This document shows positions 2,049 to 41,781 of a stretch of DNA of 54,581 bases, piece after piece (within the stretch, counting starts at the first letter, position 1; each line of letters opens with the position of its first letter). The notes under the pieces are model-generated. The model was not told the origin of the DNA. It saw only the letters and a list, made by a program, of their open reading frames with translations, and made no database searches. Origin of the DNA: Minisyncoccota bacterium (GTDB lineage Bacteria > Patescibacteriota > Minisyncoccia > Phycocordibacterales > UBA9973); assembly GCA_043776915.1 (NCBI GenBank), contig JAYVQT010000034.1, positions 1 to 54,581 of the forward strand, written 5' to 3'. Both the position numbers and the translations under genes were made by a program.

Positions 2049-3428
2049 ATGACTAAACGTTCGGTTGCTTCCAAGAAGCTCTGGAAAATTGGTGCCACGG
2101 AGTTCAATACTCAATATTTTGATTTTAATAAGGAAGGTGATCTAATTATTAAAGAAGGTCATAATATTTATAATGTTCGCTACATGGCTGAGAAGTTTGG
2201 AACCTCGCTTGAGATCCTCATGCCTTTTGTTATTGAAGAGCGCCTCGAAGACTTCCTCGACCTGGTCCGCGATCTTTCGAAGAAAGTCGGCTACCAAGGC
2301 AAGTTCTTCTATCACTACCCGATGAAGGTGAATCAGAATAAAGAAGTCGTTATGGCAATTGTGGGTGAAGGTGCTCACCTTGAGACATCATCATATAATG
2401 ACCTCTGGCTTGTGAAGAAAATGCTTGAGCAAGAGACATTCAATCCAAATATTCGTATTCTCTGTTCTGGTCCGAAGACTGATAAATATATCTCTCTTAT
2501 TGATGATCTTCAGCATCGTGGTGTGAAGATTTTCCCACTTATCGAAGGTCCGAACGAGCTCAAGTTTCTACAATATTCAAAGTACGATGTTGGTATCCGA
2601 CTTGATATGCCAATTAAGGCAAGTTCATATTGGAATAAGCCGATTGACCGCTTCGGATTCTCAGCGAAAGAAATTCTCTCGATGGGGTCATTTAAGAATC
2701 TGAAAATTTTGCACTACCATATCGGCTCACAGATAGAGAAGCTCTCAGATGTTATTGCCCCAATCAAGTATGCGCTCGATGTGTACTTTAAAATAAAAGA
2801 GAAGAATCCTATGCTCGACACACTTGATATCGGAGGTGGTATGCCAATTCCATATACTCGCTCAAAGAGCTACCCCGTTGATAAATTGATGGAGAAGATC
2901 TTGAAGCTTATCAAATCAGAATCTGAGAAGCGTGGACTACCACAGCCGAACCTTGTGTGTGAATGGGGCCGCTATATCGTGGCGCCAGCACAGATTACAA
3001 TCTTTAAAGTTATTGACACTAAAGCAATTTCAAATAAAAAAAGCCCAGCCAAGAAGTGGTACGTTATCGACGGAAGCTTTATGAACGATCTTCTGGATAC
3101 CTGGGCGATTGGTCAGAAATGGGCGGTATCACCAGCTAATAATAAGAATGATTCAGATTTGAACGAAGTCTGGCTTGCAGGCTCTAGCTGTGATTCTGAT
3201 GACATTTATACAGGAGTGGATGGTACAGTGACTCTTCCTGACTTTAATTTTGATAATGGTGAGAATATGTATGTCGTTGTTTATGATACTGGAGCATACC
3301 AAGATCCATTGGCAGCGCACCATTGTATGCTCTCATCACCACTTAAGCTTATTGTCGAGAATGGGCACATCGTCGTGGCTCGTAAACGTGAGAGTCCAGA
3401 TGATGTCGGTAAAAATTTTGGTTGGTAG
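2049..3428 (+). CDS. speA: Arginine decarboxylase-like PLP enzyme (fold-III Orn/DAP/Arg decarboxylase family)
   Basis: 459 aa. Motifs are PMKVNQNK (PLP lysine region), HYHIGSQ, DIGGGMP, EWGRYIVA and GSSCDSDD (catalytic Cys retained). These are typical of biosynthetic ADC-type enzymes. Substrate not proven. Confidence 0.8.
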   Translation: MTKRSVASKKLWKIGATEFNTQYFDFNKEGDLIIKEGHNIYNVRYMAEKFGTSLEILMPFVIEERLEDFLDLVRDLSKKVGYQGKFFYHYPMKVNQNKEVVMAIVGEGAHLETSSYNDLWLVKKMLEQETFNPNIRILCSGPKTDKYISLIDDLQHRGVKIFPLIEGPNELKFLQYSKYDVGIRLDMPIKASSYWNKPIDRFGFSAKEILSMGSFKNLKILHYHIGSQIEKLSDVIAPIKYALDVYFKIKEKNPMLDTLDIGGGMPIPYTRSKSYPVDKLMEKILKLIKSESEKRGLPQPNLVCEWGRYIVAPAQITIFKVIDTKAISNKKSPAKKWYVIDGSFMNDLLDTWAIGQKWAVSPANNKNDSDLNEVWLAGSSCDSDDIYTGVDGTVTLPDFNFDNGENMYVVVYDTGAYQDPLAAHHCMLSSPLKLIVENGHIVVARKRESPDDVGKNFGW

Positions 3429-3458
3429 AATTACAAATAAGTTTTATAATATTAAGAT

Positions 3459-4490
3459 ATGCAAAATACAAATCTTCCAACACTTCCAACACTAGAATTT
3501 ATTCTTAAAAATTTCAAAAATTTCAACTCTCGTGCTACTCGCGATGCACTGATTGCATATTGGCGCCATACTGAAAAGGGTGGCAAAATGTTCTGGGCTG
3601 TGGCTGGTGCTATGAGTTCTGCTCAGCTGGGTATTACACTTGCGCCAGCAATTCGCGCCGGACTTATCTCTGGGATGTCAGTAACAGGTGCGAATCTTGA
3701 AGAATCCCTTTTCCGCCTTGTTGCTCATCACAGCTATAAAGATTTTCCAGATTACCGTTATTTCACCAAAGAAGATGATACCAAGATTCTTAAAGACCGT
3801 ATGCGTCGAGTGACCGATACGAGTATTCCTGAAGACGAAGCATTTCGAGTAGTTGAGGGTCTTATTGTACCGACATGGAAAGAAGCGACAGAGAAAGGTA
3901 CACGGAAATTCTGGCATGAGTACTTCTATGATCTCATACAGCAAATTGACAAAACGGATCATGAAGGTGATGCGACTGAGTGCTGGTTACTCGCTGCTGC
4001 CGAGAATAATATTCCGATCGTGGTACCAGGCTATGAAGACTCAACGTTCGGTAATATTTTTGCTTCACATGTCAAAATTGGTGAATGTAGTGCCAGCATT
4101 GCTAAGTCGGGTATTGAGTACATGGGTGCGTGGTATGACCAGTATAAAGAACTTTCGAAAGGTGAGGGCGTTGGATTCTTTCAAATTGGCGGAGGAATCG
4201 CTGGTGATTTTCCAATCTGTGTCGTACCATCAATCAAGTACGACCTCGGCGAAGACGTTAAACCGTGGGCTTACTTCTGTCAGATCTCTGACTCGACAAC
4301 TTCGTATGGTTCGTACTCTGGTGCAACTCCAAATGAAAAGATTACTTGGGATAAGCTTACGAAAGAAACTCCAATGTTCGTCGTCGAATCAGATGCGACT
4401 ATTGTAGTACCACTTATGCTGACCGCTCTTCTTGAATGCATAGCTAATCCTGAAGAAGCGAACAAGTTGATTGCAAAATATAGTATATAG
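3459..4490 (+). CDS. Deoxyhypusine synthase (DHS)-family protein, bacterial DHS-like type
   Basis: Colinear with DHS as I remember it: [10 protein letters not shown] ~ [30 protein letters not shown] ~ [31 protein letters not shown] ~ [35 protein letters not shown] ~ [25 protein letters not shown]. The catalytic Lys position is Gly here. Confidence 0.85.
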   Translation: [343 protein letters not shown]

Positions 4491-4497
4491 TCTAAAT

Positions 4498-4532
4498 AAA
4501 AATACCTACACATACCTAGTATGGGTATTTTT
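4498..4532. terminator. Possible bidirectional terminator between convergent genes
   Basis: aaaaatacc...ggtattttt (9 bp, long loop) or an inner atacc/ggtat hairpin, flanked by A and T runs. A weak call. Confidence 0.35.
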
Positions 4533-4534
4533 AT

Positions 4535-5425
4535 TTATTTTAATGTAGCTTTAAACTTATTGGCAATAATCGTATAGACAAGCTGTGCAGCTCCATATTC
4601 GGTTAATACTGAGTCGCGCTGAGGTGCAACTTCGACAATATCAGCGCCGATAAGGTTCTTTTCTTTTATTACTCTTTCAATAAGTTCGATACCATACCAC
4701 CACTCAAGTCCACCTTGGACCGGCGTGCCAGTACCAGGCATGAAGCTTGGGTCGAAACCATCAACATCAATAGTCAGGTAGACATTTTTCGTTGTGATTG
4801 ATTTTAATATATCTGATATATCAGGAATTTTCTTATTATTACCCCATTCGTATACAGTAATATTATTTTTTGGATTGCTAAAGTAGTTATATTCATCCAC
4901 TGAATAAGTGCGTATGCCGACTTGGACAAGCTTGTAGCCGAGCTCATTCCCACGGTGAAGGACGCATGAGTGTGCATATTTTGATGGGTGACTACTATAA
5001 TCTCCATCATTGTCCCGAAGGTCACAATGAGCGTCTATTTGAAGAATAGTTACATCTTTCGGGTCAGTATGCGTGGCGAGAGCTTGGAATAGCCCAAGGG
5101 AGACTGAGTGCTCGCCACCAAGGAGAAATACAAATTTACCTTTTTTTATAAAACTTTCGCAAACTTCTGTAATTTTTGCCAGCGCTTTCTCTGGTGTTAG
5201 CTTACTAATATTACCTAAATCTTTATGAGCTATTTTTATCTTACTATTCGGCTCACATTTAAATGTCCTATCAAAAAACTCTAGCTTTGTATCAAGGCAT
5301 TTAAGTATAGCTTTCGGGCCATGAATTGTACCCTTACGACTTGAAGCCGTCTTCTCATATGGAGCGCCCACTATAACAACATCTGCATCTTCTAATTTTT
5401 TTGTATTAATGATTCCATGAGTCAT
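4535..5425 (-). CDS. Agmatinase-family ureohydrolase (arginase fold)
   Basis: All Mn-ligand motifs are present: GGEHSVS, QIDAHCDL and TIDVDGFDP. I moved the start to the ATG at 5425 (MTHGIIN...), because a TACTAT -10 box at 5432-5437 lies 6 nt upstream. The track's TTG start at 5440 falls inside that box. Confidence 0.85.
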   Translation of the reverse strand: MTHGIINTKKLEDADVVIVGAPYEKTASSRKGTIHGPKAILKCLDTKLEFFDRTFKCEPNSKIKIAHKDLGNISKLTPEKALAKITEVCESFIKKGKFVFLLGGEHSVSLGLFQALATHTDPKDVTILQIDAHCDLRDNDGDYSSHPSKYAHSCVLHRGNELGYKLVQVGIRTYSVDEYNYFSNPKNNITVYEWGNNKKIPDISDILKSITTKNVYLTIDVDGFDPSFMPGTGTPVQGGLEWWYGIELIERVIKEKNLIGADIVEVAPQRDSVLTEYGAAQLVYTIIANKFKATLK

Positions 5426-5431
5426 GTCGAC

Positions 5432-5437
5432 ATAGTA
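5432..5437 (-). promoter_or_regulatory. -10 box (TACTAT) 6 nt upstream of the ureohydrolase ATG
   Basis: The reverse complement of atagta at 5432-5437. The spacer gtcgac then leads to the ATG at 5425-5423. Confidence 0.45.
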
Positions 5438-5478
5438 CAAAAAATAAGCTTATTTTGCAATTAACTAAAGGAAAAACA

Positions 5479-5487
5479 TGATATAAT
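5479..5487 (+). promoter_or_regulatory. Extended -10 (TGaTATAAT) 6 nt upstream of the EamA transporter ATG
   Basis: tgatataat at 5479-5487; ATG at 5494; no SD. Implies a leaderless mRNA. Confidence 0.55.
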
Positions 5488-5493
5488 ACTTAT

Positions 5494-6390
5494 ATGAGTA
5501 CGGAATTACTAGTAGCGATACTTGCAGGTCTCGGAAGTATGATTGGCTGGGGTTTTGCCGATTTCTTTGCTAAAAAAACTATAGATAAGATTGGAGATAT
5601 AAATACTTTGTTTTGGAGTCAACTATTTGGAATTATACCACTTGATATTTTATTCCTCATAAACCCAACAATTCCCGGCAAATTAGCAGGTAATGGTTTT
5701 ATACTGGTAATAATTTTAGGCATATGGAGTGGTTTTTCATATATACCCACTTATATTGCATTCGGAAAAGGTAAAGTAAGTCTAATCAGTCCGATATTTG
5801 CTTCCTATGCAGTACTTGTGGCAATTCTTTCGGCTGTCTTTCTGCAGGAAATAATCCCACTGGGTCGCCAAATAGCTTTTTTTGTGGTGTTTGTAGGAAT
5901 TCTTCTTATCAGCATTAATCTTAAAAATATTTTCAGTCTGAAAAAAAGTAATACAAATACACCACACGAACCAGTAAAAGGCTTAAAAGAAATATTGTTT
6001 TCCGTTATATTTTTTTCGATTTGGTTTATTGCACTAGATAAATTTATTAGCGGCGAGAATTGGGTTCCAATTCTTTTATTGATAAGAATATTTTCTGCTC
6101 TATCTCTTTTTGTATATGCAAAAATTAGAAATATAAGTCTGAGTGTAACGGATCAATCACTTTGGAAATATTTATTGATGATAGGATTGTTCGACGTAGG
6201 AGCATTTTCTGCCACTTCATACGGCTTTAGCCATACTTCATATGTTAGTGTCGTAGCAATGCTTGGAAGTGCTTTTTCAGTACCTACAATTATTCTAGCA
6301 AGAGTTTTCTTGAAAGAAAAAGTAACATTGTATCAGACAGCGGGAAGTATTGTTGTGATTATGGGTATTATGCTATTGTCTTTATTATAG
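5494..6390 (+). CDS. EamA/DMT-family transporter (10-TM drug/metabolite transporter)
   Basis: 298 aa, two internally repeated 5-TM halves and hydrophobic throughout, which is the typical EamA architecture. Confidence 0.7.
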   Translation: MSTELLVAILAGLGSMIGWGFADFFAKKTIDKIGDINTLFWSQLFGIIPLDILFLINPTIPGKLAGNGFILVIILGIWSGFSYIPTYIAFGKGKVSLISPIFASYAVLVAILSAVFLQEIIPLGRQIAFFVVFVGILLISINLKNIFSLKKSNTNTPHEPVKGLKEILFSVIFFSIWFIALDKFISGENWVPILLLIRIFSALSLFVYAKIRNISLSVTDQSLWKYLLMIGLFDVGAFSATSYGFSHTSYVSVVAMLGSAFSVPTIILARVFLKEKVTLYQTAGSIVVIMGIMLLSLL

Positions 6391-6398
6391 ATCAATTT

Positions 6399-7553
6399 AT
6401 GAGAAAAGAACCCCAACAAACAAATAGATTTTTTGAGTTTAATAAAATTAAAAGTTTTAAAAAAGTAACTCCATTCTTTCTTTTCAATAAACAAGCCATA
6501 ATATCGAATCTCAATGAATACAAAAGTTCAATGCCAAAAAATACCGAAATTTGTTACGCGATGAAAGCAAACTCAGAAGAAATAGTTTTGAAAACATTAA
6601 AAGAAGCAGGTGCGAGTTTTGAAGTGGCATCAAAGTATGAGTTGGAATTACTTAAAAAAATAAAAGTTGATCCTAAAAAAATTATTTATGGAACTGCTGT
6701 AAAACCTGCCAACCATATATCAAGTTTTACTAAGTATGGCGTAGATAGATTTGCTTTTGATTCACTTCAAGAATTAGAAAAAATTGCAAAATACGCGCCA
6801 GGTGCTCGTGTGTATTTGCGAGTAATTGTTGATGATAAATCAGACAGCGTTTTCAATATGTCAGAAAAATTTGGTTCCCCGCTCGATAATACAGTTTTCT
6901 TACTCTTGAAGGCTTTAGAATTGAAACTTGTGCCATATGGTATTAGTTTCAACGTAGGATCACAGGCGCGAAACAAACATGCATGGACTAGAGGTATAAA
7001 AGATATATCTCATACAATGAAGGAACTTCAAAAAAAAGGTGTAAAAATTGACGTAATAAATCTGGGAGGTGGTTTTCCATTTAGTTATCAAAAAGGAGAT
7101 GGATTTTCTGGAATAAGAGAAATTGCTAAATCTATAAAATCTTCTATAAAATTTATTCCCCATAAAGTATCATTTATAGTTGAGCCTGGAAGAGGTATTG
7201 TTACAAATTCTTACTGTTTGATTACTAGTATTATCGCTACAAATAAGAGACCTAATGGGAATTGGCTGTATACCGATGCCGGAGTATACAATGCATTACT
7301 TGAAGCTACAAAAGGCCAAGGTAGTACAATGTATAAAGTAATGACAATAAAGCAAGATTCTCATAGATCAAAACAATCGTATGTATTGAGTGGGCCAAGT
7401 GGAGACAATATAGATATTATTAACCCGCATATTTTTCTAGCAAAAAATATACAAGTTGATGATCTAATTATTATCTACGATGTGGGTGCATATTCATTCA
7501 CTCTCGCTACACCTTTTAACGGTTTTCCCGTACCTAAAACGTACTTAATTTAA
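6399..7553 (+). CDS. Second fold-III PLP decarboxylase (ornithine/lysine/DAP decarboxylase-like)
   Basis: Motifs are CYAMKANS (PLP Lys), NLGGGFP, VEPGRGIV, TDAGVYNAL and YDVGAYSF..TPFNGFP. The expected GPTCD catalytic Cys motif reads GPSGD. Confidence 0.8.
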   Translation: MRKEPQQTNRFFEFNKIKSFKKVTPFFLFNKQAIISNLNEYKSSMPKNTEICYAMKANSEEIVLKTLKEAGASFEVASKYELELLKKIKVDPKKIIYGTAVKPANHISSFTKYGVDRFAFDSLQELEKIAKYAPGARVYLRVIVDDKSDSVFNMSEKFGSPLDNTVFLLLKALELKLVPYGISFNVGSQARNKHAWTRGIKDISHTMKELQKKGVKIDVINLGGGFPFSYQKGDGFSGIREIAKSIKSSIKFIPHKVSFIVEPGRGIVTNSYCLITSIIATNKRPNGNWLYTDAGVYNALLEATKGQGSTMYKVMTIKQDSHRSKQSYVLSGPSGDNIDIINPHIFLAKNIQVDDLIIIYDVGAYSFTLATPFNGFPVPKTYLI

Positions 7554-8228
7554 TTATTTTCTAATTATAGGAGCAATCATTGTTTTTGCTTGCCAATATT
7601 CACAATCAGGTGGAGTATCTAGATTACAGATTTCGAAACTAATATTTTCTTTTTTAAATCCTGCTTCAAGTAATTTCTCCATGTGGTTTTCAGAAAAATC
7701 TGTAGCCTCATCAGAATAATAAGTAAAAATTCCACTTGGCTTCAACATCCTAAAAGCCTCTTTGAAAAACCAAAAATGATTTCCATGTACTTCTTCTTCT
7801 GTCAAAGGGTAAGTGTCAAACAATATCCCATCTAAAGATTCATTCGCTATCATCGGAGTGATATCTTCCCAAAAACCGGTTAACAAGTGTAATTTATTTG
7901 ATTCGATTGCATTCTTTTGATCTATAATACATTTTTCGATAACTCCAATATTACATTCAATAATATAGTGATTATCAATTTTTACAGACTGAATTGCATT
8001 AGCTGAAAGTCCAAGGCCATATCCTAACTCAAGGATTTTACCACCATTTTGCGTAGCGATTCTAGCAAGGGTATTCATATAGTTTAGCTCCCAGTCTTCC
8101 ATAACAGGGTGCCCAGCTATCTTTAAGCTGTGTTTATCATATACTGCTTCTTTTTTTATCCAATCTTCCTTTTTAGTTACAAACCCGATGTTTTTTCTTG
8201 TTTCTATGGTGTTTATTTTATTGCCCAT
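7554..8228 (-). CDS. Guanidinoacetate N-methyltransferase (GAMT)/Rmt2-family SAM methyltransferase
   Basis: Colinear along its whole length with vertebrate GAMT as remembered:
- HPVMEDWELNYMNTLA ~ KPVMERWETPYMHALA
- GGKILELGYGLGLSANAIQ ~ GGRVLEVGFGMAIAASKVQ
- IDNHYIIECN ~ IDEHWIIECN
- FWEDITP..LDGILFDTYPLTEEE ~ LWEDVAP..FDGILYDTYPLSEET
- FRMLKPSGIFTY ~ FRLLKPGGVLTY
- LLEAGFKKENI..PPDCEYW ~ LLEAGFRRENI..PPADCRYY. Confidence 0.85.
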   Translation of the reverse strand: MGNKINTIETRKNIGFVTKKEDWIKKEAVYDKHSLKIAGHPVMEDWELNYMNTLARIATQNGGKILELGYGLGLSANAIQSVKIDNHYIIECNIGVIEKCIIDQKNAIESNKLHLLTGFWEDITPMIANESLDGILFDTYPLTEEEVHGNHFWFFKEAFRMLKPSGIFTYYSDEATDFSENHMEKLLEAGFKKENISFEICNLDTPPDCEYWQAKTMIAPIIRK

Positions 8229-8251
8229 ACTATAATTCTATTGGTTAAATC

Positions 8252-8279
8252 TATATTATATATTATATATTATATATCA
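8252..8279. repeat. Heptanucleotide tandem repeat (tatatta x3 plus tatatca) in a divergent promoter region
   Basis: Read directly from the sequence. It lies between the GAMT-like gene (-) and the membrane-protein gene (+). Confidence 0.8.
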
Positions 8280-8316
8280 TTGACCTCAAAGCTCAAAAGA
8301 CCTATAATATTAACAC

Positions 8317-9126
8317 ATGACAAATACTTACCAGAAGGTTTTAGTGGGCTATTTAGTACTATTGGTTATATATTGGTTAATACTATCTAATAGTCACTCT
8401 ACTGACAGTATTTACAATTTTCTCTATTCATTCCTGTTTAGTTTAATACCACTTCTTGGTGGGTTTATAGGAATGATAAAGTCAAAAATTTGGGGCATGT
8501 TTACAAGCTCTCTTGGTAAGGCAATATTTTTCATTTCACTTGGAATTTTCTTATGGGGAATGGGTAGTATAGTATGGTCATATTACAATTTAATCGTACA
8601 TATTGAGATGCCTTATCCATCCCTTGCTGATCTAGGTTTTGCTCCTAGTATATTTTTCTATGGACTCGGTGCAATGTATTTATCGAAAGCAACCGGAGCG
8701 AAATTTGGCTTAAGAAGTAAATTTGCCAAAACCGGGATAGTTCTTACGCTCATAGCTTTACTTGCTCTATCTTATTATTTTCTAATTGTTGTTGCTCGTG
8801 GTGGAGTACTCATTCCAGAAGGCGAAACCGTGCTCAAAACTATATTAGATATTGCATATCCACTAGGAGATTTTGTTGGCCTATCAATTGCAATAATTGT
8901 ATCTGGTCTGTCATTTAAATATTTAGGAGGAAGATATGTGCCTGATGTAATGATGATATTGCTCGGACTTGCTATTATGTATTTTGCAGACTTTCTATTT
9001 TCTTATAGCACTACAGTTGGAACATTTTATAATGGAGACAAAGGGGATTTATTGTTAACATTCGGATTATTTTCAATAACATATGGAGCTATGGGTTTTT
9101 TCAAACTTAAAACTAGTAATTCATGA
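8317..9126 (+). CDS. Polytopic membrane protein of unknown function (about 7-8 TM)
   Basis: 269 aa, hydrophobic throughout. Its stop overlaps the start of the next ORF (ATGA). A TATAAT box at 8303-8308 lies 8 nt upstream of the ATG. Confidence 0.6.
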   Translation: MTNTYQKVLVGYLVLLVIYWLILSNSHSTDSIYNFLYSFLFSLIPLLGGFIGMIKSKIWGMFTSSLGKAIFFISLGIFLWGMGSIVWSYYNLIVHIEMPYPSLADLGFAPSIFFYGLGAMYLSKATGAKFGLRSKFAKTGIVLTLIALLALSYYFLIVVARGGVLIPEGETVLKTILDIAYPLGDFVGLSIAIIVSGLSFKYLGGRYVPDVMMILLGLAIMYFADFLFSYSTTVGTFYNGDKGDLLLTFGLFSITYGAMGFFKLKTSNS

Positions 9127-9431
9127 TTGCCACATCCATTTTAACCACTATGACAATATTTTCACGAATGTCATCACGAATAATTAAAGAACAAGAATTG
9201 ATCATCGGACCAGTGGCTTGGTCTGAAGCTCTCAAGGTACAAGGTTTGCACGTTGTCGACCAAAAGGCTGGTGAAGTGACAATTGATGGTGATGAGAAAA
9301 ATGTGATAAATAATCTTGTGGCACAGTATGCTCGTCTTTTCGGAAAAGCTTCAAATGAAGTATGTAAAGAAGCTGTTCAGGATTTGATAAAAGAATTACC
9401 AATAGAACAAATACCCGCTAGTCTAATATAA
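9123..9431 (+). CDS. Small soluble protein of unknown function, translationally coupled to the upstream membrane protein
   Basis: 102 aa, 4-nt ATGA overlap with the upstream gene. It is followed 8 nt later by the histidine-kinase core gene. Confidence 0.5.
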   Translation: MIATSILTTMTIFSRMSSRIIKEQELIIGPVAWSEALKVQGLHVVDQKAGEVTIDGDEKNVINNLVAQYARLFGKASNEVCKEAVQDLIKELPIEQIPASLI

Positions 9432-9439
9432 TATATAAT

Positions 9440-10288
9440 ATGTCCGACTTACCAAATAGTGAAGTACCCCAAAATGAATTTAAAGAGATTACAGAAGAGC
9501 TGTATGTAAAGAATTTGGAGTTAGTAAATTTGAATAAAGAAAATGCTCGTTTGAATACTGAGCTAAAAATTGCCAATGAAAAACTTCAAGACTTGGACAA
9601 ATTGAAGACAGAATTTCTTTCACTTGCGTCTCACCAATTACGCTCACCTCTGACTGCTATTAAAGGCTATGCATCTATGGTTATTGAAGGTGATTTTGGT
9701 CAAATATCCAAAGAAGCTCATGATGCTGTCGAACGTATTTTCCAATCGAGTCAGAACTTAGCTAAGATTGTCGAAGACCTACTTAATGTTTCTAAAATTG
9801 AACAAGGCGGCATGAAGTACGAAATGGCACCATTTGATCTGACTATTATTGCACGAGATATGACTAAAGATCTCTCTATTACAGCAGAAAAAAAAGGATT
9901 AAAAATGACATTTGAAACAGATAGCACGAAAGAGTTTATGGTAAACGGCGATAAAGAGAAAATCCGCCAAGTCATTCTCAACTTAATTGATAACTCGATA
10001 AAATATACGAAAGAAGGAGGAGAAATAAAAGTGTCTCTAAAGAAAATAGATTCAAAAGTTATTTTTGCTGTTGCTGATAGTGGTATGGGTATGACACCAG
10101 AAATTAAAGCAACATTATTCCAGAAGTTTGCTCGCGGTGAAGGGGCGCGTATGAATACCGGTGGTTCAGGTCTTGGACTGTATTTGGCTAAAGAAATCGT
10201 CGAAGCACACAAGGGTCACGTCTTTGTAGACTCAGAAGGTATGGGTAAAGGTTCAATATTTTCTATGGAACTTGATCTTATGTCTTAG
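9440..10288 (+). CDS. Histidine kinase core (coiled coil, HisKA and HATPase_c) with no TM or sensor domain
   Basis: H-box SHQLRSPLTAIKGY, N-box NLIDNSIKYT, G1 DSGMGM and G2 GGSGLGL. There is no hydrophobic N-terminus. Confidence 0.9.
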   Translation: MSDLPNSEVPQNEFKEITEELYVKNLELVNLNKENARLNTELKIANEKLQDLDKLKTEFLSLASHQLRSPLTAIKGYASMVIEGDFGQISKEAHDAVERIFQSSQNLAKIVEDLLNVSKIEQGGMKYEMAPFDLTIIARDMTKDLSITAEKKGLKMTFETDSTKEFMVNGDKEKIRQVILNLIDNSIKYTKEGGEIKVSLKKIDSKVIFAVADSGMGMTPEIKATLFQKFARGEGARMNTGGSGLGLYLAKEIVEAHKGHVFVDSEGMGKGSIFSMELDLMS

Positions 10289-30732: not shown

Positions 30733-32103
30733 ATGGAAATCAACACAAAGAAAACGAGAAAAGCATCCCTCGTGTTAGAAGATCAAATCATTGAGACTGT
30801 ATATGACGCAATCAAGGAAGAAACACGGTTCGCTATATATAAAAACAACATTGTCGAATTTTTGGATGCAGTGACAACTCACAAAGGTGAATTCCACCCC
30901 CTTGATGCTAAGAGCGATATTGTGAGCAAGGGTGTTGTCTTGCTACCATCCATACCACTCGAATACAGCACTGATATTGAGCTTACGCTCGCAGTGCAAG
31001 CATTCATTCACAAGTATCTCGATATTTCGCCAGACTACGAGCAAATCGCCTCATACTATGTCCTCTGTAGCTGGCTGTATGACCGTTTCAACGAATTACC
31101 GTATCTTCGTGCTATTGGCGACTTTGGGAGCGGTAAAAGCCGATTTCTCCAAACTATTGGCTCTATCTGCTATAGACCTATTTTCACTGGTGGAGCAACG
31201 ACTACAGCCCCTATATTTCGCATTTTAAACGAGATACGTGGCACACTCATCCTTGACGAAGCTGACCTAAAAGCAAGCGATATGACGAACGACATTATCA
31301 AGATACTCAATATGGGATACCAGAAAGGTGGCTCTGTGTTAAGAATGGGAGGCAAAGACATGGAGGACCTAAAAGCTTTTGATGTATTTTCTCCGAAAGT
31401 AATAGCTACCAGAGAAACCTTTAATGATAAAGCTCTTGAGAGCCGATTCCTTGTTGAAGAAATGGGGCGTGGGAAGCTACGTAAAGATATACCACTCCGC
31501 CTGAGTCATAACTTTTACGCAGAAGCACTCGAGTTACGTAATAAGCTACTCATGTGGCGATTTAAGAATTACAACAAAGAATTAGTCTTTGATGATAGAG
31601 ATATTGAAGGAGTGCATCCACGGCTTAAGCAGATAGTTATTCCGCTTATGACACTCATTGATTCAGAAGAAATGAAGCAATCGCTGAAAGAGTTTGTGCA
31701 GAAATATAATGTGGAACTTACTGCTGATAGAGGGCTTTCACGGGAATCAGATATAGCGTTTGCGATACTCAAGTTTGAACATGATACGCGCAAAAAGGAG
31801 ATCACTGTGGGCGAGATTGCAGAATATGTTAACACCGACATTTTGGATTTTGACGACAAACTTACTCCTAGAAAAATTGGTTGGTATCTTCGCTCAAAAA
31901 TGCAGTTGAAGCCATATAAAACACGGCGTGGCTTTGTGCTTGAACTTGAACGTAACCGTGAAAGATTAGATTTCTGGAAAGAACGATACGGTATTACTGA
32001 TGCGGATATTCGAGGTGAAGAAGTGAATGATGTGAACGATGTGAATGTTGTAAGAAGGGTTGACGAAAAGGATATACCTACTGCTCAAGAGATCGGATTT
32101 TAG
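30733..32103 (+). CDS. P-loop NTPase with a C-terminal winged-helix region; putative replication or helicase-loader protein of the element
   Basis: Walker A GDFGSGKSRF and Walker B TLILDEAD. The C-terminal segment ITVGEIAEYV...LTPRKIGWYLRS...RRGFVLE...FWKERYGI resembles the C-terminal domain of phage/plasmid primase-associated ATPases (DUF3631-like, from memory). Confidence 0.55.
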   Translation: MEINTKKTRKASLVLEDQIIETVYDAIKEETRFAIYKNNIVEFLDAVTTHKGEFHPLDAKSDIVSKGVVLLPSIPLEYSTDIELTLAVQAFIHKYLDISPDYEQIASYYVLCSWLYDRFNELPYLRAIGDFGSGKSRFLQTIGSICYRPIFTGGATTTAPIFRILNEIRGTLILDEADLKASDMTNDIIKILNMGYQKGGSVLRMGGKDMEDLKAFDVFSPKVIATRETFNDKALESRFLVEEMGRGKLRKDIPLRLSHNFYAEALELRNKLLMWRFKNYNKELVFDDRDIEGVHPRLKQIVIPLMTLIDSEEMKQSLKEFVQKYNVELTADRGLSRESDIAFAILKFEHDTRKKEITVGEIAEYVNTDILDFDDKLTPRKIGWYLRSKMQLKPYKTRRGFVLELERNRERLDFWKERYGITDADIRGEEVNDVNDVNVVRRVDEKDIPTAQEIGF

Positions 32104-32304
32104 GTTATTACTTAACTACTGCTATTCTCCGCTGTGTCGTAGGTGTTGTCATTTGCAGTACGAAACTCCCACAAAAAAAGCTCGGAATCTTTCCCGACTA
32201 ATCCGAAAACCATACCTTTCGAGTGAAGCACCGTACATGCTCATTAAGCATGCGGGTCTTACACAGCAGGATTTTCTAGATTCGGAGAAATAAGATTTTA
32301 AAAA

Positions 32305-32469
32305 ATGGAACTTGATACAGAACAAAAAATAGTAAATATCTTTACAGACGAGGAATTGGAAAATATTTCTGGTCTATGTTCTGTTTTACAAAGAATCCGA
32401 ACCCGACTTATTTCTGAGGGCTATTCCATAAATGAATTAAGACAAAAATTACTTAAAAATAAAGTATAA
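32305..32469 (+). CDS. Candidate 54-aa ORF just upstream of the recombinase (possible directionality factor or regulator)
   Basis: MELDTEQKIVNIFTDEELENISGLCSVLQRIRTRLISEGYSINELRQKLLKNKV. It is not in the track because it is under 60 aa. It ends 27 nt before the recombinase start. Confidence 0.3.
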   Translation: MELDTEQKIVNIFTDEELENISGLCSVLQRIRTRLISEGYSINELRQKLLKNKV

Positions 32470-32496
32470 AAATGTTATAATTAAAACATTCAATTT

Positions 32497-34176
32497 ATGG
32501 CTAAAACTATTGACGAAAAACCGTATAGAAACTATTACCTTATCTATACTCGCAAAAGCACAGATGATACCGAGAATCAAAAAAATTCTCTTGCGTACCA
32601 AATCGGAGAAGCTATTAGATTAGCAAAATTACATCATCTCCCTATCGCTCCAGTTGATATAGAGAATCTCTGCAAAGATGGAATTATTAAAGAGCGTCAT
32701 ACTGGCTTTAAAGAAGATGCGGACTTTGATATTGATCCTATGGGCAAGGTTACTTACACCATTGAAAGACCTAAATTTTTAAGACTTGTTAGATTCCTCA
32801 AAGACGGATATTTCAAAGGTGTTATTTTCCTCTGTTGGGATAGAGCGAGTCGAAACAAGAATGACGATGCTGTTCTAAGAAAACTAATGAAGCAAGGTGT
32901 CGATATTCACTTCGTACAGGCTCAATACGACTCTAAAACTAGTGCTGGAGAGCTCCATATGGACGTAGACGGTATGTTCTCACAACACTTCTCTAGAGTT
33001 ATTAGTGAGAAGGTTACTAATCAAAACAGAAAGCTCCGCCAAGATGGTGTATGCACCTATAAAGCCCCTATTGGCTACTTGAATGAAGGAAATTCTAAGC
33101 ATAAACCGTTTGATCCTATTCGTGCTCCAATTATAAAAAATATCTTTGAAAAGTACGCTGAGGGAACATGGAGTCTGCATGACCTTTCCGAATGGGCCAA
33201 GACACAAGGGCTAACTATGTACCCTTCACGCCGAAAGCGAACTATGGAAGAAATGCTTGCGGATGATGAGATTAAAATTGATGCCATTTGTCGCCCAATA
33301 ACAGAAAAAATTATTCAACGAATACTTAATAATCCATTTTATATTGGTATGATTAAAGATAGGGATTCCCCAACTGGTGTGCGAGTAAGCACAAGCCATG
33401 AAGCTCTTGTCACGAATGAACTTTTTAACCGTGTTCAACAAATATTAAAATTGAAGAAAGTTAGTATTCACTACACGGAAAAAGTTTCTATGCCTTATCG
33501 TGGCATGTTGCGTTGCAATAACTGTCACCGTGTTTATACGCCCTATAAAAAGAAAGGAATCGACTATTATGGAGCAAGATGTGATAAGAATTGCTCGAAT
33601 ACTCAAAAAAGTGTTAATGGGAAATATATAGAAAACAAAATTGGTGAAAAAATAAGTGAACTTTTTTATACAGAAGAAGAGCTTGTAGAAATTGATACCA
33701 TGATAAAAACTGACCTAAAAACACTTGAAGTGAAGCGACAGAAAGGATTAGAGCAAATCCAGCGACAAAAAAGCAAAGTTCGTGAAGACCTTGCGTATCT
33801 ACGAGAAAACAAACTGCCTCTACTTAAAAGCTCTGTATACTCTCCAGAAACTTTTCTTAAAGAAGAATCTGATTTAATGGCAAAACTTCAGAATTTTTGT
33901 ACTGAAGAGAACACATCAGATGTTGCAATTGATGAAGTGGTAAAAGATTTGGTGATTCTTTCCGAACTCTTGAAGGATGCTTATGTATATTATTATTTTG
34001 CTAAACCATTCGAAAAAGAAGAATTGATTCAGAAAGTTTTTTCCGAACTCAATTTATTTGAAGATACCCTTACATACAAAACTAAAAACGGATTTAGACT
34101 TCTCGAACGAACCGAAAAGACATTATGTGCCCGAGGTGGGAATCGAACCCACATCCCTTACGAGACACGATTTTAA
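32497..34176 (+). CDS. Large serine recombinase (serine integrase)
   Basis: The N-terminal resolvase domain has the catalytic Ser context YLIYTRKSTDD..NSLAYQ and a DRASRN motif. It is followed by a recombinase domain (PIGYLNEG), a zinc ribbon (CNNCHRVYTP...CDKNCSN) and a coiled coil. The last 49 nt overlap tRNA-Leu in antisense. Confidence 0.88.
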   Translation: MAKTIDEKPYRNYYLIYTRKSTDDTENQKNSLAYQIGEAIRLAKLHHLPIAPVDIENLCKDGIIKERHTGFKEDADFDIDPMGKVTYTIERPKFLRLVRFLKDGYFKGVIFLCWDRASRNKNDDAVLRKLMKQGVDIHFVQAQYDSKTSAGELHMDVDGMFSQHFSRVISEKVTNQNRKLRQDGVCTYKAPIGYLNEGNSKHKPFDPIRAPIIKNIFEKYAEGTWSLHDLSEWAKTQGLTMYPSRRKRTMEEMLADDEIKIDAICRPITEKIIQRILNNPFYIGMIKDRDSPTGVRVSTSHEALVTNELFNRVQQILKLKKVSIHYTEKVSMPYRGMLRCNNCHRVYTPYKKKGIDYYGARCDKNCSNTQKSVNGKYIENKIGEKISELFYTEEELVEIDTMIKTDLKTLEVKRQKGLEQIQRQKSKVREDLAYLRENKLPLLKSSVYSPETFLKEESDLMAKLQNFCTEENTSDVAIDEVVKDLVILSELLKDAYVYYYFAKPFEKEELIQKVFSELNLFEDTLTYKTKNGFRLLERTEKTLCARGGNRTHIPYETRF

Positions 34177-39908: not shown

Positions 39909-40778
39909 ATGGAAGATATTACAAATACTAAAATTGAAGAATTAGAATTAAAAGCAAATGATATTCGTCAGAGTATTATTACAATGCTTCTCGAAGCCAA
40001 ATCTGGCCACACTGCCGGACCTCTTGGTATGGCTGATATTTTTACCTTACTTTATTTTCATGCCATGAAGCATGACCCAGAAAGACCCGACTGGAAAGAT
40101 CGTGATCGACTTGTACTTTCCAATGGTCATATTGCTCCTGTTCTCTACGCTGCAATGGCTCATGCTGGGTATATGCCGATTAAAGAACTTCAAACACTTC
40201 GCCAGTTTGGCTCACGTCTCCAAGGTCATCCACATCGCGAATTTATGCCATGGCTTGAAAATTCATCCGGACCACTAGGTTCTGGTCTTTCACAAGCTGT
40301 TGGTATGGCACTCGCTGATCGCATTGATAATGGTAATGGCACCGACAAAACTATTTACGCCATGCTCTCCGATGGCGAACATGATGAAGGTAATACATGG
40401 GAAGCAGTCTTACTGGCTGGCAAAGAAAAGCTACGGAATTTGATCGCGATTATAGATCGTAATAATATTCAGATAGATGGATATACCGAGGACATTATGC
40501 CTATGGGTGATATGGCGAGTAAATACCGCGAATTTGGCTGGCATGTTCAAGAAATAGATGGACATAGCTTCCGTGATATAAATGATGCTATCTGCAAAGC
40601 CAAAGCGGTATATGAGAAACCATCAGTCATCGTGGCGCGCACTGTTCCTGGCCGTGGAGTCAAAGAATTTGAACGCGATTATCGCTGGCATGGTAAAGCT
40701 CCAAATAAGGAAGAGGCGAATATGGCTCTCAAAGAACTTCGAACTCTCGGTGGTAAAATTAAAAGCGAACACGAATAA
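39909..40778 (+). CDS. Transketolase, N-terminal (TPP-binding) subunit
   Basis: GHTAGPLGMADI, LSNGHIAPVLYA, and GSGLSQAVGMA...LSDGEHDEGNTWEA. 289 aa, the split-tkt arrangement. Confidence 0.9.
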   Translation: MEDITNTKIEELELKANDIRQSIITMLLEAKSGHTAGPLGMADIFTLLYFHAMKHDPERPDWKDRDRLVLSNGHIAPVLYAAMAHAGYMPIKELQTLRQFGSRLQGHPHREFMPWLENSSGPLGSGLSQAVGMALADRIDNGNGTDKTIYAMLSDGEHDEGNTWEAVLLAGKEKLRNLIAIIDRNNIQIDGYTEDIMPMGDMASKYREFGWHVQEIDGHSFRDINDAICKAKAVYEKPSVIVARTVPGRGVKEFERDYRWHGKAPNKEEANMALKELRTLGGKIKSEHE

Positions 40779-40779
40779 T

Positions 40780-41781
40780 ATGCTAAACCAATCTTTAAAA
40801 CTTAATACCAAGTTATTCAATGACGATGTCGAGCAGATTCCAATCCGCCAAGGATTTGGCGAAGGATTACTACAAGCTGGAATTGATAATGAAAATATTG
40901 TTGCTCTCTGCGCTGATCTTACTGAATCTACTAAAATGAATTTATTTTCAGAGAAATTTCCCCAAAGATTTATCGAGATTGGTGTGGCAGAGCAGAATTT
41001 GGCTACTGTGGCAAGTGGTATGGCTGCCATGGGCAAGATTCCATTTATATCTTCGTATGCCATGTTTAGTCCTGGCCGTAACTGGGAACAGATTAGGACA
41101 ACTATTTGTTACAATGATCGCCCTGTGAAGATCGCTGGCTCTCACGCAGGTATTTCCGTTGGCCCTGATGGTGGTACACATCAAGCGATCGAGGATATTG
41201 CTATTACTCGTGTTATACCAAACATGGTCGTTATTTCTCCGTGTGATAGCATAGAAGCAAAGAAAGCAACGCTTGCATGTGCCAAAACAAAAGAGCCAAC
41301 ATATCTTCGTCTTGCTCGAGAGAAAACACCAATCATAACAACAGACGATACACCATTTGAAATAGGTAAAGCGCAGATTGTCTTTGTTCCAGAGAAAGGT
41401 TTAGCTGAAGTGGGAATTATCGCCACCGGCGCACTTCTCTATAAAGCGCTCATTGTAGCACGAGATTTGGAAAAAGATGGAATAAAAGTAAAAGTTATGA
41501 ATCTAGCAACCATTAAACCTCTTGATGGAGAAGCCATAGTGGCACTCGCTAAAGAAGCCCGATGTATTGTGACAGTTGAAGAGCATCAGATTGCTTGTGG
41601 TATGGGTTCGGCTGTGGCAGAGTATTTAAGTCGATATTATCCAACTCCAATAGAATTTGTCGGTGTTGAAGATGTATTTGGTCAGTCAGGCACACCAGAA
41701 GAACTCATTGAGCACTATGGTATGGGAGTTACGAACATTAAAAAAGCTGTAGAGAAAGTGATAAAGAGGAGAGTGAAATAG
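40780..41781 (+). CDS. Transketolase, C-terminal (pyrimidine-binding) subunit
   Basis: RQGFGEGL..., FIEIGVAEQNLATVASGMA and GSHAGISVGPDGGTHQAIEDIA. The start is set to the ATG at 40780, 1 nt after the upstream stop. The track's 40582 start overlaps the N-subunit gene out of frame. Confidence 0.9.
   Translation: MLNQSLKLNTKLFNDDVEQIPIRQGFGEGLLQAGIDNENIVALCADLTESTKMNLFSEKFPQRFIEIGVAEQNLATVASGMAAMGKIPFISSYAMFSPGRNWEQIRTTICYNDRPVKIAGSHAGISVGPDGGTHQAIEDIAITRVIPNMVVISPCDSIEAKKATLACAKTKEPTYLRLAREKTPIITTDDTPFEIGKAQIVFVPEKGLAEVGIIATGALLYKALIVARDLEKDGIKVKVMNLATIKPLDGEAIVALAKEARCIVTVEEHQIACGMGSAVAEYLSRYYPTPIEFVGVEDVFGQSGTPEELIEHYGMGVTNIKKAVEKVIKRRVK

Follow-up and report, generated by a model that had tools for sequence, protein, structure and literature searches.

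We have analysed a stretch of 54,581 nucleotides of a Minisyncoccota bacterium (contig JAYVQT010000034.1), the whole of which is called the window and on which the coordinates of its genes are given. The minus-strand gene at 7554..8228, which begins with ATG, encodes an S-adenosylmethionine (SAM)-dependent, guanidino N-methyltransferase-like protein of 224 amino acids. This protein resembles guanidinoacetate N-methyltransferase (GAMT) and is named GAMTL in the following. It abuts, tail to tail and with 0 intergenic bases, the plus-strand gene of a 384-amino acid pyridoxal phosphate (PLP)-dependent decarboxylase (6399..7553; Pfam PF02784/PF00278) that belongs to the ornithine/lysine/arginine decarboxylase fold and is designated ODC. 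The initial annotation of this DNA had already pointed out both the GAMT likeness and the tail-to-tail arrangement with a second decarboxylase. Here, we describe the family to which GAMTL belongs, its association with decarboxylases of two folds and the function that this association suggests. Loci and proteins used for comparison carry L and P numbers, respectively.

A GAMT-family methyltransferase without the GAMT loop

GAMTL is a genuine GAMT-family enzyme and a member of PF27704. Among PDB sequences, human GAMT (3orh) is its top phmmer match (E=1.3e-47; query residues 25-224 versus chain residues 22-235), rat GAMT (1xcj) is matched with E=1.3e-45 (GAMTL 23-224 versus rat residues 19-234), and the first match outside GAMT is an unrelated methyltransferase with E=0.011. 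GAMTL and human GAMT share 43% identity over 204 columns (BLASTP) and are colinear over their full length, as the initial annotation had claimed. The family PF27704 ('GuanidinoAc_N-MeTrfase') is assigned to the protein in precomputed annotation; scans with older library copies of Pfam and NCBIfam gave no match and are uninformative, because PF27704 is newer than those copies. An AlphaFold (AF2) model built on 17 homologues (pLDDT 92.9, pTM 0.90) has the class I methyltransferase fold with the N-terminal lid of GAMT. Its top five Foldseek matches are all GAMT (TM-scores 0.73-0.85), with 3orh and 1xcj as the best (0.83-0.85), and the next matches are spermidine synthases (~0.6), which are 13-18% identical to GAMTL. 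No PDB sequence other than those of GAMTs is matched strongly. The homology as such is not new, since databases already annotate this family, prokaryotic members included.

The residues of the active site are retained as well. In the HMMER alignment, E47 of GAMTL (8088-8090) corresponds to rat E45, which we take to be the guanidino-binding Glu. The motif DGILFDTYPL (7803-7832), rightly singled out in the initial annotation as the region of the catalytic Asp, pairs with rat DGILYDTYPL, so that D138 (7815-7817) is the equivalent of D134. The latter is the catalytic base of rat GAMT (PMC12471008, PMC12842229). E47, D138 and SAM motif I (L66-E67-x-G69-x-G71) are invariant in an alignment of 17 diverse members, and motif I of GAMTL itself (ELGYGLG) is GAMT-like. 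Judged by its sequence, GAMTL keeps the SAM-binding motifs together with the Glu/Asp pair that would hold and deprotonate a guanidino group.

The main difference from GAMT is located directly after the 'TY' of beta-5, where GAMT carries CNLTSWGELMKSK (the CNLTS... segment) and the alignments show a gap of 13 residues in GAMTL. T-Y-Y-S-D-E is invariant at this site in 17 diverse homologues, with the YSDE of GAMTL encoded at 7707-7718. In the GAMT loop C168-N169-L170-T171, the carboxylate of guanidinoacetate is reportedly held by the main-chain amides of L170 and T171; if this is right, GAMTL has lost the carboxylate site and has two acidic side chains there instead. We placed 124 domains from a library of 50%-identity representatives in a neighbour-joining tree, which is rough and carries no support values. 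All sequences with a CNLT loop form one clade in it together with human GAMT, while GAMTL falls in a separate 'YYSDE' clade. Different fusions characterize the branches of this tree: the fusion partners are amidinotransferase-like domains among the loop-bearing sequences (P0160, P0187), decarboxylases in the 'YYSDE' clade and Leu/Phe-tRNA-protein transferase domains in the 'YFSDE' clade, and the domain of the 'YYTNE' clade is the C-terminus of proteins of 1,000-3,500 amino acids. No AGAT-like amidinotransferase was found in the window by tblastn with the C-terminus of P0160 (E<=10) or by reading all open reading frames (ORFs) of at least 240 amino acids, a search that covers 54.6 kb of the genome. 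Because the loop is missing, GAMTL stands outside the loop-bearing clade and the window has no amidinotransferase, we assign GAMTL to a prokaryotic loop-less subfamily that is not the creatine-forming enzyme, in agreement with the initial annotation, which had considered classical creatine synthesis unsupported.

Several relatives deserve mention in their own right. P0160 (694 amino acids) and P0187 (452 amino acids) combine the loop-bearing GAMT domain with an AGAT-like domain in both possible orders and may be single-polypeptide creatine synthases, probably of eukaryotic origin. At three loci (L035, 9494-14407; L036; L078), the neighbour of a loop-less GAMTL is an AGAT-like amidinotransferase, missed by the Pfam scan and found by tblastn at 30-36% identity; L035 and L036 additionally encode a GNAT and a short-chain dehydrogenase along with LysE-type export and EamA-type transport proteins, and these gene sets look like a different guanidino-compound pathway. 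Six proteins of 420-500 amino acids (P0166, P0172, P0184, P0190, P0223, P0174) have an N-terminal Leu/Phe-tRNA-protein transferase domain followed by a loop-less GAMT-like domain. Leu/Phe-tRNA-protein transferase recognizes N-terminal Arg or Lys, and these fusions suggest an unexplored modification of arginine at protein N-termini.

At least 423 relatives of GAMTL (E<=1e-5) are present in a collection of 5.8 billion proteins. The best of them are 55-68% identical, about 220 amino acids long and mostly metagenomic, the two closest being P0002 (68%) and P0003 (67%); those with a name are called 'guanidinoacetate N-methyltransferase' or 'class I SAM-dependent methyltransferase' and come from Saccharibacteria or Patescibacteria. 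In a survey of 185,579 species, each represented by one genome and with a relative defined by a match to two peptide patterns, at least 159 species genomes carry the gene. Among the carriers are many Patescibacteria as well as DPANN archaea, a few actinomycetes, Silanimonas/Aquimonas, Smithella, Gemmatimonadales and others. This makes the family uncommon, as the initial annotation had assumed for bacteria, and widely scattered; its patchy distribution across domains fits horizontal transfer. A scan of viral contigs revealed no relatives. One copy (L083, 8001-8705) lies among fungal genes on a 7.6-Mb chromosome of Cladobotryum mycophilum (CM071589.1); it is intronless, of the bacterial type, 59% identical to GAMTL and without a decarboxylase, and is likely the result of a transfer from bacterium to fungus.

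Decarboxylase partners and the surrounding locus

The gene neighbourhoods of 80 loci of other species were compared with that of the window (81 loci in total), whereby neighbouring ORFs were clustered without prior labels. A decarboxylase is found beside GAMTL in 37 of the 81 loci and belongs to one of two folds, namely the PLP-dependent ODC fold (17 loci within 5 kb, including the window) or the pyruvoyl-dependent AdoMet_dc fold (20 loci). The ODC-fold gene abuts GAMTL in 16 of its 17 loci and lies 3.6 kb away in the remaining one (L021). The AdoMet_dc-fold partners have 125-160 amino acids, an ESHISIHT motif and Pfam AdoMet_dc scores of 67-88 bits, and reach the NCBIfam cut-off for S-adenosylmethionine decarboxylase (AdoMetDC) or stay just under it. 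Both folds can occupy the same place: in the context HK<P102<MEM269<GAMTL>, where HK is a histidine kinase and P102 and MEM269 are proteins described below, the next gene has the ODC fold in L001-L007 and the window, and the AdoMetDC fold in L026 and L064. The two folds swap in situ, a pattern that fits replacement and not complementation.

The coupling extends to covalent fusions. GAMTL::AdoMet_dc fusion proteins make up seven clusters at 90% identity, which are 50-59% identical to P0127, and occur in addition in L040 and L080. Three further clusters (P0126, P0387, P0388) are ODC-fold::GAMTL fusions; over its whole length, the decarboxylase portion of P0126 shares 30% identity with the ODC of the window. 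The decarboxylase can also be joined to the transporter, as in the EamA::ODC fusions P0486 and P0493. In L061 (3419-4720), L079 (9356-10666) and P0125, GAMTL is preceded by an N-terminal polytopic membrane domain of about 200 amino acids, and the methyltransferase may here be fused to a transporter; a Pfam match of this domain to the MtN3_slv/SWEET type was obtained for L079 alone and lies below the cut-off (E 1.2e-4).

Both decarboxylase folds have repeatedly given rise to arginine decarboxylases (PMC10407285, PMC13625781). True AdoMetDC invariably has a Pro that is not conserved in the derivatives that decarboxylate arginine (PMC10407285). In our reading, this residue is that of 'HTWPE'; 16 of 19 GAMTL-linked SpeD-like proteins have no Pro after HT[YF]. 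The ODC of the window has the motif GPSGDNID (7392-7415, residues 332-339) in place of the GP(S/T)CD of ornithine and lysine decarboxylases. The resulting change from Cys to Gly is common to L001 and L004-L008 and is not seen in L003, L009-L016 and P0126. The corresponding Cys of Trypanosoma brucei ODC, C360, is the proton donor, and its loss favours decarboxylation-dependent transamination. A call of the ODC substrate from such residues was dropped, since neither the Asp of D-A-G-V-Y, which is kept, nor the change of Cys360 to Gly distinguishes arginine from ornithine.

Other recurrent neighbours point to small-molecule metabolism. Transporters (EamA, MFS, LysE) lie near GAMTL in 26 loci and amide-forming enzymes in 34, the latter comprising a GNAT-like family of 240 amino acids, FeeM-like proteins (a weak assignment at 22 bits, under the cut-off), PurD-like ATP-grasp enzymes and MprF-C-like proteins. 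The assignment of the acyltransferase cluster c6_240 is likewise weak, with PDB profile matches to GNATs at E 3e-4 to 0.9 and a profile-to-profile probability of 27%. NNMT/PNMT-type methyltransferases and AGAT-like amidinotransferases are each present in 3 loci. The former, amine N-methyltransferases of the NNMT/PNMT/TEMT family (Pfam 166 bits), are inserted in L002 (8732-9514), L040 (11041-11871) and L064 (8433-9299), which may mean that some lineages methylate their product at the amine end too. A GNAT-like nature of the C-terminal extension of P0121, presumed by eye, found support in neither the Pfam nor the PDB search and was discarded.

The window itself contains the conserved core EamA-ODC-GAMTL-MEM269-P102. 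A 298-amino acid EamA-family transporter (5494..6390, plus strand; Pfam PF00892) is encoded 8 bp upstream of ODC, and EamA adjoins the decarboxylase in L001, L003, L005-L008 and L084-L089. MEM269 (8317..9126, plus strand) is a polytopic membrane protein with six hydrophobic segments in a hydropathy scan; it has no match in Pfam or NCBIfam, is adjacent to GAMTL in 10 loci, and a low-confidence single-sequence model (pLDDT 53.6) has up to nine helices. It is always followed by P102, a small soluble protein (9123..9431, plus strand). In L084-L086, all five genes are co-directional and operon-like, with no kinase adjoining; MEM269 is 53% identical to its homologue in L084-L086 and P102 61% to that in L084. 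Between GAMTL and the oppositely oriented genes at 8317-10288 lies a divergent intergenic region of 88 bp (8229..8316), which harbours the best promoter-like sites of a 5-kb stretch. These face each other (TTGACC-17-TATAAT at 8280-8308 on the plus strand, TTGAGC-16-TATAAT at 8296-8269 on the minus strand) and are consensus matches only. The same region contains a perfect tandem repeat of TATATTA (3.7 copies, 8252-8277) that is not conserved in related loci. Nothing credible was found among riboswitches and known RNAs between positions 1500 and 11000.

P102 is followed by a 282-amino acid soluble histidine kinase core with HisKA and HATPase_c domains (9440..10288, plus strand; Pfam). A histidine kinase lies near GAMTL in 42 of the 81 loci and an OmpR-type regulator in 28, and one sensor domain with eight transmembrane segments (8-TM) is common to 30 of the kinases. 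Kinase density amounts to 9-15 per 100 kb up to 2 kb from GAMTL, compared to about 1 per 100 kb at a distance of 3-10 kb (~10-fold), and the biosynthetic genes are thus found beside a membrane sensor kinase more often than expected by chance. No response regulator was found in the window, and the module of P0003, one of the two nearest homologues, has no adjacent kinase. A relationship of MEM269 to the 8-TM sensor domain was tried and rejected, as neither hmmsearch nor hhalign (probability 1.4%) indicated homology.

The origin of this arrangement can be read from its relatives. The backbone of the window is Paceibacteria-like, with DnaB, RecR and CysS 85, 75 and 60% identical to their counterparts in L066 and in the same gene order, and L026 is syntenic with the window on both sides. 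At the same chromosomal site, L066 carries an ATP-grasp enzyme, GAMTL and an 8-TM kinase (4102-5793). The window kinase is 61% identical to the C-terminal kinase half of this protein and shares only 28-38% identity with the partner kinases of MEM269 and P102 in other loci, to which its first ~40 residues bear a weak resemblance. The GAMTL proteins of both loci share only 52% identity, and EamA, ODC, GAMTL and MEM269 of the window are 56-65% identical (P102 about 50%) to those of loci labelled Saccharibacteria. Because the kinase resembles that of L066 while the enzymes and MEM269 resemble the Saccharibacteria loci, a block comprising the enzymes and the membrane or sensor part was apparently exchanged and the kinase core retained, and the kinase gene looks like a chimera left by cassette replacement.

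Upstream of this core, three genes form a second group. They encode an arginine decarboxylase (ADC)-like PLP decarboxylase (2049..3428, plus strand; PF02784), a SpeY-like protein of the deoxyhypusine synthase family (3459..4490, plus strand; PF01916 125 bits, NCBIfam equivalogs under cut-off) and an agmatinase-family ureohydrolase (4535..5440, minus strand; TIGR01230 221.7 bits, cut-off 174.3). This set corresponds to the agmatine-dependent homospermidine route described in 2026, in which ADC and SpeY are followed by an N1,N9-bis(guanidino)homospermidine ureohydrolase (PMC13625781). The SpeY assignment is based on this context. The initial annotation had regarded the speA and ureohydrolase genes as one functional cluster with the methyltransferase, but this linkage does not recur: homologues of ADC, SpeY-like protein and agmatinase are found within 10 kb of GAMTL in none of the 80 loci of other species, nor are they among the called genes on the contigs of P0002 and P0003, and the adjacency is otherwise restricted to L081 and L082, contigs identical to that of the window. 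The linkage that does recur is with the abutting decarboxylase, EamA, the proteins encoded at 8317-9431 and the histidine kinase. The genes at 2049-5440 look like a separate homospermidine module, which could share agmatine with GAMTL or raise its local supply. In the apparently Paceibacteria-like genome, homospermidine synthesis seems to pass through bis(guanidino)homospermidine.

Two observations concern more distant parts of the window. The region 30733-34176 may represent the insertion of a mobile element: an ORF of 456 amino acids is followed there by one of 559 amino acids (32497-34176) with a likeness, judged by eye, to large serine recombinases. The ORFs at 39909-40778 and 40582-41781 appear by eye to be the N- and C-terminal halves of a transketolase; they overlap by about 200 bases as listed, and the true start of the latter is probably located further downstream.

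Candidate functions of the methyltransferase-decarboxylase pair

We consider it probable, with some reserve, that GAMTL is a small-molecule guanidino N-methyltransferase that is paired with an amino-acid decarboxylase and acts on agmatine or arginine to yield an amine of the N-methylagmatine type. Since the SAM motifs and the Glu/Asp pair are retained, methylation of a guanidino nitrogen of a small molecule would be expected. GAMT methylates the chain-substituted nitrogen to give creatine, and by analogy GAMTL would transfer the methyl group to the equivalent nitrogen. Together with the abutting ODC it would form a two-enzyme pathway, for which the route from L-arginine via agmatine to N-methylagmatine seems likeliest; the reverse order, with arginine being methylated and then decarboxylated, is equally possible. 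EamA would move the substrate or the product, and in other lineages the free amine may be further acylated or methylated. N-methylagmatine units do occur in a natural product, saskemycin (PMC12637814). Of the substrates suggested in the initial annotation, an agmatine-type guanidino amine remains the best candidate.

Several points weigh against this proposal. A recurrent partner of any kind is lacking in 23 of the 81 loci, and the ATP-grasp architecture is usually without a nearby decarboxylase. The best PDB matches of the window ODC are lysine/ornithine and ornithine decarboxylases and the ADC of PBCV-1; its nearest solved relatives, in other words, act on Lys, Orn or Arg. Given the separate ADC-like gene at 2049-3428, a second arginine decarboxylase in the same genome would be redundant, which may favour a different ODC substrate, for instance methylarginine or some other basic amino acid. 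The reading of YSDE as a substitute for a carboxylate-binding loop depends on the reported role of that loop being right. Finally, AGAT-like genes detected by tblastn lie beside the loop-less homologues of L035, L036 and L078, so that loop loss alone has no power to exclude guanidino acids as substrates.

The latter three loci also count in favour of a true guanidinoacetate N-methyltransferase that makes creatine, with guanidinoacetate coming from a host or from an amidinotransferase encoded in another part of the genome, as do the identity to human GAMT, the conserved catalytic residues and the database name of the homologues. Still, we hold this reading to be very improbable, given the absence of AGAT from the window, the missing GAMT-specific segment of 13 residues, a position outside the clade of loop-bearing GAMTs and GAMT/AGAT fusions, and conserved partners that are decarboxylases, whose amine products have lost the carboxylate. 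An unlikely reading, yet the least so of the alternatives to the proposed small-molecule pathway, is that of a protein arginine methyltransferase. Yeast Rmt2, an enzyme with the GAMT fold, forms delta-N-methylarginine on ribosomal protein L12, and GAMTL might by the same token modify a ribosomal or signalling protein, for instance of the adjacent kinase system. The loop-less state is common to multidomain relatives that presumably act on proteins, including the Leu/Phe-tRNA-protein transferase fusions; sequence conservation is high; the loci without metabolic partners would be accounted for; and a tuf-containing cluster lies near the gene in L045 and L067 (as well as in the truncated L041, where only the c47 neighbour is present). 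A protein substrate is hard to square with GAMTL being fused to either kind of amino-acid decarboxylase and, in the case of L061, L079 and P0125, to a weakly SWEET-like membrane domain, with the exporters and the acyl and methyl transferases for small molecules that recur nearby, and with a protein of just 224 amino acids that has no N-terminal domain for substrate recognition.

The pairing with polyamine-type enzymes raises two other readings. GAMTL might transfer aminopropyl or alkyl groups in the manner of spermidine synthase, with decarboxylated SAM provided by the AdoMetDC-like partner and a diamine by the ODC-like one. Pairs and fusions with AdoMet_dc-family proteins indeed mimic speE-speD, ODC and AdoMetDC classically both feed spermidine synthase, and spermidine synthases rank directly behind GAMT in the structural comparison. 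This is nevertheless distinctly unlikely: GAMTL is far closer in sequence to GAMT (41-43% identity) than to those enzymes, its motif I and the Glu/Asp guanidino pair are of the GAMT type and not of the SpeE family, most of the linked AdoMet_dc homologues are devoid of the AdoMetDC-invariant Pro, and the occurrence of both folds at the same position in otherwise identical contexts is a pattern of replacement. We give marginally less credence still to a role in modifying an intermediate of homospermidine synthesis, such as agmatine on its way to SpeY, bis(guanidino)homospermidine or aminopropylagmatine. All of these carry guanidino groups (PMC13625781), and the upstream module is close by in this genome and in the two identical contigs; this proximity is nonetheless absent from every other locus, including those of the two closest homologues, and the trio of ADC, SpeY-like protein and ureohydrolase is complete without a methyltransferase (PMC13625781).

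The proposed guanidino N-methyltransferase and decarboxylase pathway may have a wider context. Placement of the kinase beside the core suggests that the product or a precursor is sensed or regulated. It is possible, though doubtful, that GAMTL and the decarboxylase, together with the exporter and with variable enzymes for amide formation or a second methylation, produce a secreted, arginine-derived molecule that is read by the adjacent membrane sensor, the whole being a hitherto unrecognized small-molecule signalling or quorum-type cassette of bacteria of the candidate phyla radiation (CPR) and of DPANN archaea. The sensor would then be either the 8-TM kinase domain or MEM269/P102 in combination with a soluble kinase. 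Synthesis genes and sensor part would be swapped together at a fixed site while the kinase core stays in place, as seen when the window is compared with L066 and reminiscent of the specificity groups of agr. If the kinase link does reflect signalling, the CPR would have in this cassette a candidate system of chemical communication.

The present analysis bears on the naming of these enzymes. The name 'guanidinoacetate N-methyltransferase' has been given to hundreds of metagenomic proteins, and for the loop-less subfamily it probably points to the wrong substrate; in an ocean-virus study, genes with this name were read as creatine synthesis (PMC11360552). The decarboxylase fusions lead to the testable hypothesis that N-methylagmatine or a derivative is made in host-attached organisms with minimal metabolism that rely on arginine and polyamine chemistry, which is of interest for both polyamine and CPR biology. 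In addition, the comparison suggests an origin of GAMT in a broader guanidino methyltransferase family, from which the acquisition of one loop and of an amidinotransferase partner gave rise to the creatine enzyme of animals.

Comparison with known systems

In the literature searched, we found no paper that characterizes a prokaryotic GAMT-family enzyme or deals with its loop, its coupling or fusion to decarboxylases, the five-gene core or the association with kinases. The closest known enzyme is GAMT itself (EC 2.1.1.2; 3orh, 1xcj), with which GAMTL shares the PF27704 family, the SAM motifs and the equivalents of E45 and D134. GAMTL differs from it by the absence of CNLTSWGELMKSK, the invariant YSDE, its separate clade, and decarboxylases instead of amidinotransferases as partners. 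Yeast Rmt2 is comparable in that a GAMT-like domain acts on the guanidino group of arginine, the side chain of which agmatine resembles, whereas GAMTL is a single-domain protein accompanied by small-molecule enzymes and exporters.

With regard to gene organization, biosynthetic genes lie beside a polytopic sensor kinase, sometimes between regulator and kinase, in the agr system of staphylococci and in cqsA-cqsS/lqs. In contrast to these systems, the window has no response regulator and the P0003 module no adjoining kinase, and a role of the product as a signal is only possible. The speE-speD pair likewise places an enzyme of the class I methyltransferase fold beside, or fused to, a pyruvoyl decarboxylase of the AdoMet_dc family in polyamine-type metabolism, but GAMTL is not SpeE-like, the AdoMetDC-invariant Pro is missing from most of its partners and the partner in the window has the ODC fold. 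The same two folds recur in SpeDA and SpeDC, which derive from AdoMetDC, and in ADCs that derive from AR-fold ODC; these enzymes are found in CPR bacteria and DPANN archaea and have spread horizontally (PMC10407285, PMC13625781). They feed spermidine or homospermidine synthesis, and both studies contain no link to a guanidino methyltransferase, the only methyltransferase mentioned being putrescine N-methyltransferase (PMC10407285). In terms of chemistry, a parallel is offered by SznE/StzE and by saskemycin, where methylation of the guanidino group of a small molecule is combined with decarboxylation to give units of the N-methylagmatine type (PMC12637814, PMC11705231). SznE and StzE belong to actinomycete clusters and methylate free arginine to omega-N-methylarginine, a regiochemistry that is probably unlike that of GAMTL.

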